Source: an uncultured Eubacteriales bacterium (lineage in GTDB: Bacteria > Bacillota > Clostridia > TANB77 > UBA1234). From it: a DNA stretch of 64,000 nucleotides. The stretch is from positions 90,636 through 154,635 of the forward strand of contig CAZEVD010000001.1 of the NCBI GenBank assembly GCA_964515475.1, given 5' to 3'. A model generated the notes under the pieces. It saw nothing but the letters and a program-made list of their open reading frames with translations, searched no databases and had not been told where the DNA came from. Both the position numbers and the translations under genes were made by a program. This document shows, one piece after another, positions 59,945 to 60,737 of the stretch; position 1 is the first letter of the stretch, and each line of letters starts with the position of its first letter.

Positions 59945-60217
59945 ATGGAAGCGTTAACTTCCCAAAAAGTACGAGTCTATCGAGCCCCCGCGGGTATTCG
60001 AGTTCAAAGAATGCCTAATGATCCAAAGGGTGAAGAAACAACTAAGTCGAAGTGCTTTGTACTTAGCTGTGGTGAATACCAGCGCCCTGTTTCCGAAAGC
60101 TTCCTGCGAAATAATTTTAAAATGCAAGACGGAGGCGCGGTAAACCCCGAAAGACTCATTTTCGGGAGGATATACTCGGTATGTCCGACTACATCTATCG
60201 AGGCTATACTGGCCTGA
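59945..60217 (+). CDS. Hypothetical 90-aa ORF in a GC-rich segment; may instead be non-coding structured RNA
   Basis: Strong RBS AAGGAGG 8 nt upstream. About 46% GC. No recognisable motifs. Confidence 0.2.
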   Translation: MEALTSQKVRVYRAPAGIRVQRMPNDPKGEETTKSKCFVLSCGEYQRPVSESFLRNNFKMQDGGAVNPERLIFGRIYSVCPTTSIEAILA

Positions 60218-60354
60218 GGAACATATGCGCTGAGGGTAAATATACAACAACCCAAAGCGCATTTTCTTCCGTATAGGAATGACATTTTAGCCTAAAGCCG
60301 GGGCAAACGAAAAGCCCCTCTTTAAATATAATTTAACACCACGGAGGTAATACA

Positions 60355-60597
60355 ATGAAAACGAAGGAAAAAAGCAGAAAGTACAAAGTTGAGTATCTTA
60401 TTTATTTTTTGAAGGCAGACAAACCCGGACCGAGTTATCCGTATCGTAAAGAAATGGTTTTGGAAGAACCGGTTGCAGAAAATGCTATCAAGGCTCACTT
60501 TGAAAATCAGATTGCAAGATTGATTGCTGGGTTCAATGAATTTCCGGTTGAAGAAGTCAACGTTGAGATCACATCAATGCAGGAAATTGTGGCATAA
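60355..60597 (+). CDS. Hypothetical 80-aa protein
   Basis: RBS GGAGGT. Followed by a terminator at 60609-60657. About 40% GC. Confidence 0.35.
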   Translation: MKTKEKSRKYKVEYLIYFLKADKPGPSYPYRKEMVLEEPVAENAIKAHFENQIARLIAGFNEFPVEEVNVEITSMQEIVA

Positions 60598-60737
60598 AGC
60601 CATCCGAAAAAGCGTTCAGAATTCGTATATGAAAAAGCGAATCTGAACGCTTTTTTCATACCTCAAACGCTTGAATTATGTGGACTTGCAAAATTTTAAT
60701 AAATTATTGATATCTTAGGAATAATGGTATAGAATAA

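Follow-up and report, generated by a model that had tools for sequence, protein, structure and literature searches.

The DNA considered here is a stretch of 64,000 nucleotides (nt) from a contig of an uncultured Eubacteriales bacterium, which we shall call the window. It contains a patch of unusual composition, located between a gene of the uridine kinase family (udk-like) and the operon gap-pgk-tpi-gpmI of central glycolysis. Over positions 59945-60660 the G+C content of this patch is 41.6%, with a peak of 43-44.5% in 200-nt windows, as against a mean of 30.2% for the whole stretch (standard deviation 3.8, 500-nt windows), so that an earlier note on this DNA had rightly singled it out as richer in G+C than its flanks. 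A content of at least 39% is reached elsewhere in the 64 kb in three places only: 19251-20750, which corresponds to an FtsH-like gene, 23751-24500, and a pair of tRNA genes around 37300. The patch contains two open reading frames (ORFs), ORF1 and ORF2, each followed by a hairpin with the features of an intrinsic terminator, T1 and T2 respectively (Table 1). Comparison of related loci leads us to propose, with high confidence, that two orphan genes for small proteins, separated by an internal terminator, form here a conserved, self-contained operon. The earlier note had hesitated between two orphan small ORFs and a structured RNA. The first term of this alternative is the one that prevailed, with a substitution pattern typical of coding sequences, ORFs that are kept across lineages, and no match to any family.

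By their mode of divergence ORF1 and ORF2 are genuine protein-coding genes, because the ratio of non-synonymous to synonymous change (dN/dS), the placement of insertions and deletions (indels) and the conservation of an open frame in related loci all point to the same conclusion. The pairwise tests compared the window with the copy present in one related locus (L001; other loci are designated likewise), where ORF1 is 76.6% identical over 273 nt. The 64 differences are distributed over the three codon positions as 20/10/34, with not a single indel across the 273 nt, and dN/dS is 0.225 in the frame of ORF1, the two alternative frames giving 0.97 and 2.28. For ORF2, dN/dS is as low as 0.017, with a synonymous divergence (dS) of 0.95. 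Both genes thus combine an excess of synonymous change specific to their frame with an open frame that no indel interrupts, indels being restricted to the spacer that separates them. Among the six possible frames, the sense frame of ORF1 is the only one to be open in 11 of 11 lineages. Antisense ORFs covering ORF1 (102 and 93 residues in the window) were also considered and discarded: they are not conserved, being broken in L001, L021 and L025. The perfect ribosome-binding site (RBS) previously ascribed to ORF1 is indeed in place. As for ORF2, which had been described as a real small acidic protein, its reality is established by its very low dN/dS, while its acidity is only mild (pI 5.8), the N-terminus being very basic.

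Table 1. Predicted features of the ORF1-ORF2 unit and of its boundary with gap, with positions in the window.
Feature	Position	Strand	Description
Putative promoter of the ORF1-ORF2 unit, SigA/sigma-70 type	59789..59817	+	-35 TTGACA 59789-59794, 17-nt spacer, -10 TAAAAT 59812-59817
5' leader, about 120 nt	59818..59944	+	palindrome 59855-59871; RBS GAAGGAGG 59927-59934
ORF1	59945..60217	+	90 amino acids (aa), basic (pI 9.2), predicted mostly beta, orphan family
T1, putative intrinsic terminator/attenuator hairpin	60225..60269	+	hairpin 60225-60262, then UUUUCUU
Small hairpin	60300..60318	+	GGGGC 60300-60304, 9 nt, GCCCC 60314-60318, just 5' of the ORF2 RBS
ORF2	60355..60597	+	80 aa, pI 5.8, basic N-terminus, predicted beta-beta-alpha-beta, orphan family; RBS GGAGG 60343-60347
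T2, putative strong intrinsic terminator ending the unit	60607..60657	+	stem GCGTTCAGA...TCTGAACGC, U6 tract
Predicted gap promoter, leader, RBS and start codon (neighbour, outside the unit)	60675..60776	+	TTGATA 60707-60712, 17 nt, TAGAAT 60730-60735

These coding signatures refute a quite different view of the patch, in which it would make a non-coding structured RNA, or be the leader or a riboswitch of the gap operon, possibly akin to RNase P RNA; we give hardly any credit to it. That the region folds in a locally stable way, and that it lies directly 5' of gap, spoke in its favour. Yet, when the covariance-model search that had been recommended was run with Rfam 15, it identified no RNA class: at the gathering score the whole window has three tRNAs only, and at E<=10 the segment 59600-60800 displays chance-level matches (mir-154, caiA, snoR12 and SQ1002, with 14-19 bits for thresholds of 39-128) and no RNase P. 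The strings in which a resemblance to RNase P RNA had been perceived do exist (GCGCGGTAAACCCCGAAAG at 60135, CCTGAGGAAC at 60213 and GCTGAGGG at 60229). However, there is no match to RF00010 or RF00011 and the universal P4 motif GGAAAGUCC is missing from the region as well as from the whole window, an absence that had already been remarked (GGAAAGTCC is found nowhere in the window, on either strand). A novel leader RNA of gap fares no better. The leader that precedes ORF1 is not more stable than its shuffled counterparts (z -0.13), which, together with the silence of Rfam, led us to reject a riboswitch or leader. Furthermore, because T2 and a separate, invariant gap promoter intervene, the patch would form an independent unit rather than the leader of gap.

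The excess in G+C is present at the level of codons, and it is far outside chance. The G+C content of third codon positions (GC3) is 0.42 in ORF1 and 0.38 in ORF2, whereas the long ORFs of the window, 42 in number, stay with one exception between 0.13 and 0.23 and the mean of host genes is 0.171. In the same way the codon adaptation index (CAI), 0.73 in host genes, is 0.49 in ORF2 and 0.32 in ORF1. If a codon is called rare when host genes use it in less than 10% of cases within its synonymous family, then rare codons amount to 27% of ORF1 in the window (CGA, CGC, AGG, CCC, GCC, CTG, CTC, TCC and others). Across lineages this proportion is 14-28%, to be set against 4.7 +/- 1.9% in host genes and a maximum of 15.7% for chunks of 90 host codons. 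GC3 follows suit in nine lineages, with 0.33-0.54 for ORF1 and 0.26-0.52 for ORF2, as compared with 0.15-0.20 for gap. Since codons rich in G+C persist in all lineages although synonymous sites are saturated between the major ones (proportion of synonymous differences 0.69-1.0), the comparison tells us that this foreign-looking composition is maintained, and is not the relic of a transfer.

The distribution of the pair points in the same direction. Relatives were collected by sequence searches with ORF2, by an exhaustive HMMER search and with a profile of ORF1. Exact or near-exact copies of ORF2 are present on many metagenomic contigs and, wherever the flanks are long enough, the order of genes is kept: recJ, relA, a gene of the metallo-beta-lactamase fold, tRNA-Leu(CAA), a variable cargo, ORF1, ORF2, gap, pgk, tpi and gpmI. 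The segment that extends from ORF1 to gpmI is found as such in L001, L011, L023, L024 and L025, while L029, L030 and L032 agree with it over the length of their contigs, which run past gap into the beginning of pgk or tpi. Even the most distant relative, L025, in which ORF1 has 51% and ORF2 36% identity with its counterpart, displays the same order. The only departure is that of L019 (JAEIGA010434923.1, 537-1047), where ORF2 has been deleted, so that ORF1 (94 aa) and T1 are followed by a T2-like terminator and the gap promoter. In GTDB the pair is restricted to two species-level genomes, CAYMVI01 and JAFWYG01, assembled from metagenomes of uncultured Clostridia/'Eubacteriales', one of which came from sheep rectum. 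No match to the unit was found in plasmids and phages (blastn), no relative in viral contigs (profile scans), none outside the clade among 5.8 billion clusters and 1.84 billion representatives, and a metagenome scan returned nothing beyond a contig already in the set. The pair evolves faster than its neighbours: between the window and L001, dS reaches 0.80 in ORF1 and 0.95 in ORF2, while relA has 0.52, pgk 0.31 and gap 0.19. From its fixed position across lineages, and from the lack of plasmid, phage or viral relatives, we conclude that the pair has, on this comparative evidence, long resided in a narrow clade by vertical descent, and is no recent island.

It had nevertheless been suggested that the patch is a horizontally acquired micro-island, brought in from a donor richer in G+C, possibly the one that also provided the FtsH-like gene. 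The GC3 and CAI of both ORFs, when compared with those of the host, are indeed as atypical as may be expected from a genomic island, the FtsH-like gene has similar features (GC3 0.46, CAI 0.33), and the site is located 3' of a tRNA-Leu gene (57892-57974), at a place where cargo differs among strains. The slot in question (57892-59788), which the tRNA gene and the promoter of ORF1 delimit, is occupied in the window by a HAD gene and a PRK-like gene with a frameshift, in L001 by a protein of 155 aa without Pfam match, and in L023 and L024 by a NUDIX gene; it is empty in L011, L021, L029 and L032, where a spacer of 130-250 nt remains. This variable cargo, however, sits 5' of the ORF1 promoter and not around the pair; neither integrase genes nor att-like repeats were seen in the slot, and no integrase, transposase or other mobility gene, nor flanking direct repeats, were found around the unit. 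Presence is not patchy, and no other taxon or mobile element provided relatives. As the pair stands at the same place in lineages that have diverged down to 36-51% identity and whose synonymous sites are saturated, a transfer, if there was one, would have to be older than the clade, and amelioration of the composition should by now have taken place. A recent island thus appears highly improbable, and the patch may be taken as a clean counter-example to the habit of equating atypical G+C content with recent horizontal transfer.

If composition is maintained, the question arises of what maintains it, and the folding of the messenger gives a hint. The minimum free energy of the ORF1 coding sequence is about -79 kcal/mol over 273 nt, for about -45 in host chunks of the same length. 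When compared with dinucleotide shuffles, it gives z-scores from -1.6 to -3.8 in eight lineages, and with synonymous-codon shuffles, in nine lineages, a mean z-score of -2.5 (range -1.6 to -3.7); chunks of host genes used as controls (n=26) have a mean of -0.67 with a standard deviation of 1.28. No consistent signal of this kind is visible for ORF2. RNAalifold proposes two local helices in ORF1, with few double changes, in addition to T1, the covariation being modest. The many G/C helices that had been noticed in the region thus correspond to a stability which exceeds that of shuffled sequences in all lineages tested, and it is in the view of this folding as a non-coding structure that the earlier observation went astray, as it is a property of a coding mRNA. 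Taken together these features suggest selection on the folding of the ORF1 mRNA, or on its slow decoding.

The strongest hairpins of the region are T1 and T2, neither of which had been singled out previously. Both associate, as read from the sequence, a stable G+C stem-loop with a U-tract, which is what characterizes an intrinsic terminator. T1 (-16.2 kcal/mol, z -4.65) starts 7 nt 3' of the ORF1 stop codon, a distance that is 6-9 nt in all lineages. Its stem is organized as ATGCGC-(inner stem)-GCGCAT. No variation is seen across 12 lineages in the six outer base pairs or in the U-tract, and the tail UUUUCUUCC is likewise invariant. The inner stem covaries, with variants TGAGGG/CCCAAA, TAGGG/CCCCCA, CAGGGA/TCCCAGG and TATGAGAT/ATCTCAAA, and the loop is of variable length (17-25 nt of insert). 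Because the inner stem covaries while the outer stem and U-tract do not vary, and because loop length is free to change, T1 fits an RNA hairpin, the intrinsic terminator, rather than a DNA operator. T2 is a perfect 14-nt inverted repeat (-24.5 kcal/mol, z -7.8) and is kept in all lineages, including L019 which lacks ORF2. The GGGGC-loop-GCCCC hairpin described in the earlier note just before the RBS of ORF2 is present as well. It is weaker than T1 (-10.3 kcal/mol, z -2.0); a compensatory change to GGGTC/GACCC is seen in L001 and L007, and its sequence is not kept in the distant L021, L024 and L026.

Motifs resembling an anti-Shine-Dalgarno sequence, of the CUUCC type, occur at 59947-59962 (just after the ORF1 start), 60099-60104 (codons 52-54) and 60267-60273 (tail of T1). 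Their complements GGAAG, GGAGG and ACGGAGG are found at 59927-59934 (RBS of ORF1), 60134-60140 (codons 62-64) and 60343-60349 (RBS of ORF2). Pairings between the two sets are feasible in most lineages, without convincing covariation. RNAalifold likewise proposed long-range pairings of the Shine-Dalgarno sequence with CUUCCU at codons 52-54, and of the T1 tail with DG codons. Among the 10 aligned sequences, 9-10 keep them, but when the check was widened to 12 lineages the tail/DG pairing failed in 3. We do not claim them, because the codons concerned are constrained by the protein and there are almost no double changes.

At the 5' end, the predicted promoter of the unit has 11 of 12 consensus matches in a promoter scan. 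The TTGACA box which had been proposed as its -35 element holds. The TATAAT sequence associated with it does not, as it begins at 59807, a mere 12 nt 3' of TTGACA, while TAAAAT is properly spaced. The whole block, GTTGACA(T/A)A(T/A)T...TGTAATAAAATAC, is kept in 10 of 10 lineages for which upstream sequence is available. The leader is otherwise little conserved, save for GGTTACATAAT and the RBS. It contains a palindrome, TATGACA-tag-TGTCATA, with one compensatory change in L001 (TGGCA/TGCCA), that is missing from leaders of the L020/L024 type. On the upstream side, the PRK-like gene has its own terminator (59646-59677). No convincing promoter for ORF2 was seen.

What the two proteins do is less easily read. 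ORF1 has 20 invariant residues across nine sequences, and ORF2 a conserved motif IAG(I/F)NEF(P/S), its family counting six representatives among 1.84 billion proteins. Searches of Pfam, PHROGs, NCBIfam and PADLOC gave no match for the window or for the distant family members (with E<=1 for Pfam and NCBIfam); PDB sequence profiles returned chance matches only (E>=0.26), and a fold search of BFVD nothing better than E 4e-3. AlphaFold2, fed with a shallow alignment, models ORF2 as beta-beta-alpha-beta with a predicted local distance difference test score (pLDDT) of 79.8, four of the five models being within 78.8-79.8, and ORF1 as mostly beta, with 84.7 for the best model. These models resemble generic folds and are not fold assignments. 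As neither protein has hydrophobic segments, we take both to be cytosolic. With low confidence, they might be seen as a small regulatory or adaptor pair binding nucleic acid or protein.

Two adjoining small genes in a single unit, both from orphan families, bring to mind a type II toxin-antitoxin system, or some other small module of defence or addiction: the product of the first gene, in excess owing to T1, would neutralize that of the second. The resemblance goes somewhat further, as a terminator between the genes would yield a surplus of the first product, which is probably so here; as ORF1 evolves fast relative to its neighbours; and as L019 has lost the second gene while keeping the first, which is what the loss of a toxin would leave behind. 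We nevertheless see this as most unlikely. In PADLOC, Pfam and NCBIfam neither partner has a counterpart among toxins, antitoxins or defence proteins, and no fold of this kind was recognized for either. The genes neither overlap nor abut, but are 137 nt apart, with two hairpins in this long structured spacer. The pair occupies a fixed, single-copy chromosomal position in all lineages, being neither patchy nor mobile, and purifying selection on ORF2 is very strong.

The patch can probably be understood as a self-contained unit encoding two lineage-restricted small cytosolic proteins, to which attenuation at T1 and selection at the level of mRNA are added by inference. Transcription would start at a SigA-type promoter and proceed through a leader of about 120 nt with its Shine-Dalgarno sequence, ORF1, T1, ORF2 and finally T2, which would shut the unit off from the gap-pgk-tpi-gpmI operon and its separate promoter. 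As there is no convincing ORF2 promoter, ORF2 would be transcribed by read-through at T1, a partial terminator or attenuator that would leave ORF1 in excess over ORF2. T1 would also lie inside the footprint of a ribosome halted at the ORF1 stop codon, so that read-through may depend on the coupling between translation and transcription; that T1 acts as an attenuator, possibly sensitive to the position of the ribosome, is proposed with low confidence. The richness in G+C would result from selection on the mRNA, either for stability or for slow structured translation, superimposed on selection on the protein, and this appears to be the most economical reading of the composition.

Several points weigh against this reconstruction. 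The promoter, the terminators and the ratio of ORF1 to ORF2 are all deduced from nucleotide sequence alone. T1 might terminate transcription fully, ORF2 being then expressed from a weak promoter, and a conserved TAAATAT is present in some lineages about 20 nt 5' of its RBS. In L019 ORF1 is kept without ORF2, so that the two proteins are not strictly interdependent. The ORF1 model is unstable, the other four of the five models having a pLDDT of 50-71. On the side of the mRNA, 5 of the 26 control chunks also reach z <= -1.5, the lineages used in the folding tests are not independent of one another, and covariation pairs were counted on the very alignment that yielded the consensus structure, with controls biased as a result. 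Finally, the connection with gap is one of synteny only, and within this narrow clade synteny extends to the entire neighbourhood.

The part attributed to the messenger may be pushed further. ORF1 mRNA and T1 would then constitute, besides the protein, a translation-coupled attenuator or a regulatory RNA: either T1 would form or not according to how fast ribosomes travel along ORF1, and the transcription of ORF2 would depend on it, or the folded ORF1 RNA would act in trans. The conservation of rare codons and of a high GC3 in all lineages despite saturated synonymous sites, the folding scores that are negative throughout nine lineages, and the constant location of T1 past the stop codon, with its invariant outer stem and UUUUCUUCC tail, would all be natural in such a setting. 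Moreover the tail, CUUCCGU, is complementary in most lineages to the Shine-Dalgarno sequence of ORF2, ACGGAGG, and to the region of ORF1 codons 62-64. A model is available in the translation-coupled transcription attenuators, such as that of pyrBI in Escherichia coli, where a leader ORF ends at or in a terminator. Here too an ORF ends a few nt before an intrinsic terminator that precedes the downstream gene, and rare codons could modulate the coupling of ribosome and RNA polymerase.

The analogy has its limits, however. ORF1 is a protein of 90 aa under purifying selection, and not a short dispensable leader peptide. No conserved antiterminator helix was identified for a translation-coupled attenuator, the geometry, T1 at 6-9 nt past the stop codon, being what is seen of it, and terminators close to stop codons are commonplace. 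The helix formed by the tail with the DG codons (helix 6) fails in a quarter of the lineages (3/12). Covariation is modest and its controls are biased towards the structure tested; control genes at times reach similar z-scores; and no Rfam family matches. All things considered we regard such a dual function as unlikely. A more ambitious version, where ORF1 would combine a conserved protein with a folded mRNA rich in rare codons, T1 would be an attenuator that senses the speed of translation and sets the level of ORF2, and the pair would regulate the gap operon, looks distinctly unlikely. Should the selection on ORF1 mRNA be real and tied to T1, the unit would offer a simple case of regulation based on codon usage. 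The self-contained operon of two protein genes is what we retain.

The fixed site of this operon directly 5' of gap could nevertheless reflect a link to glycolysis. In Bacillus and many other Firmicutes, the place directly 5' of gapA is that of the gene of CggR, the central glycolytic genes regulator, of the SorC/DeoR type. It is one protein, of about 340 aa, that associates a helix-turn-helix (HTH) and a sugar-binding domain, and it is co-transcribed with gapA. In the window cggR is absent from this usual slot, and the unit fills the place just 5' of gap-pgk-tpi-gpmI, which makes it a candidate for a locus-specific regulator, by position alone. It differs from CggR in that it encodes two unrelated proteins of 80-90 aa without Pfam match, in a unit of its own which would be terminated before the gap promoter; an N-terminal HTH, a SorC domain and the Pfam Sugar-bind profile are missing from these proteins of 90 and 80 aa. 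By eye, a search for a CcpA cre site or an operator common to the ORF1 leader and the gap promoter retrieved only short AT-rich 7-mers that are shared by both. Another precedent is SR1 of Bacillus subtilis, a dual-function small RNA that encodes a peptide of 39 aa, SR1P, which binds GapA (PMC3526287, PMC5013986, PMC8152036). It illustrates how a small protein may act on gap, and how a coding function may be associated with a structured RNA. There is no similarity with it here, be it in sequence or in Rfam, and the 39 aa of SR1P are to be compared with 80-90 aa. In B. subtilis SR1 is not known to be encoded beside gapA.

An orphan pair, by itself, belongs to the ordinary biology of orphan genes. 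What the locus adds is two uncharacterized families of small proteins, each with fewer than about 10 sequence clusters in public data, confined to a lineage of uncultured low-GC gut Clostridia and fixed beside its central glycolytic operon. More noteworthy is their composition, with a GC3 two to three times that of the host and a quarter of rare codons in ORF1, preserved in vertically inherited genes after saturation of their synonymous sites.

The neighbourhood of the unit calls for some further remarks. The predicted gap promoter has 10 of 12 consensus matches in the promoter scan, with the start codon of gap at 60774, and its block is nearly invariant in all lineages even though the adjoining ORFs have strongly diverged. 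This block of promoter, leader and RBS (ATTATGTGGACTTGCAAAATTTTAATAAATTATTGATAT...TATAGAATAACCAATGGATAAAAAAATTTTTAAGGAGGAATTTTTTATG) is found in the window and in L001, L011, L017, L019-L021, L023, L024 and L029, that is, in lineages where dS of relA is 0.5-0.9. Such conservation, more than a promoter needs, suggests a conserved operator, an UP element or some function of the leader. Downstream, a repeated intergenic element is present once between gap and pgk (61798-61987) and once between pgk and tpi (63294-63417), with related ends GCATGAAAATCA... and GGACTTCATAAATTTCC...ATTTTGA, the second copy having inverted-repeat arms of 34 nt. A matching element follows pgk in L023, and copies lie between gap and pgk in L011. 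It is apparently mobile or variable among strains, like miniature inverted-repeat transposable elements (MITE) or repetitive extragenic palindromes (REP). In L011 (5420-6430) gap is called as two pieces of 40 and 292 aa, probably through a frameshift or an assembly error.

On the other side of the unit, the gene of the PRK/uridine-kinase family (58892-59615, forward strand) is split into an ORF of 173 aa (58892-59413), which corresponds to positions 1-154 of the 196 of the Pfam PRK profile, and an out-of-frame ORF of 50 aa (59463-59615). An identical product of 173 aa is called on two independent contigs, L012 and L016, and for this reason the frameshift seems genuine, not a fault in the assembly of this record. 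A nearly identical direct repeat of 19 nt, TTTTTTGAAG[C/G]CAGACAAA, is shared by the segment 3' of tRNA-Leu (58091-58109) and by the YFLKADK codons of ORF2 (60405-60423); no similarity extends around it, and it could be due to chance or be a tiny remnant. Farther away, the FtsH-like gene (19309-20775, reverse strand) encodes 488 aa, which is short for FtsH, with AAA, AAA_lid_3 and Peptidase_M41 domains. With 43.6% G+C and 23% rare codons, it is the sole long ORF of the window to display a codon anomaly like that of ORF1.

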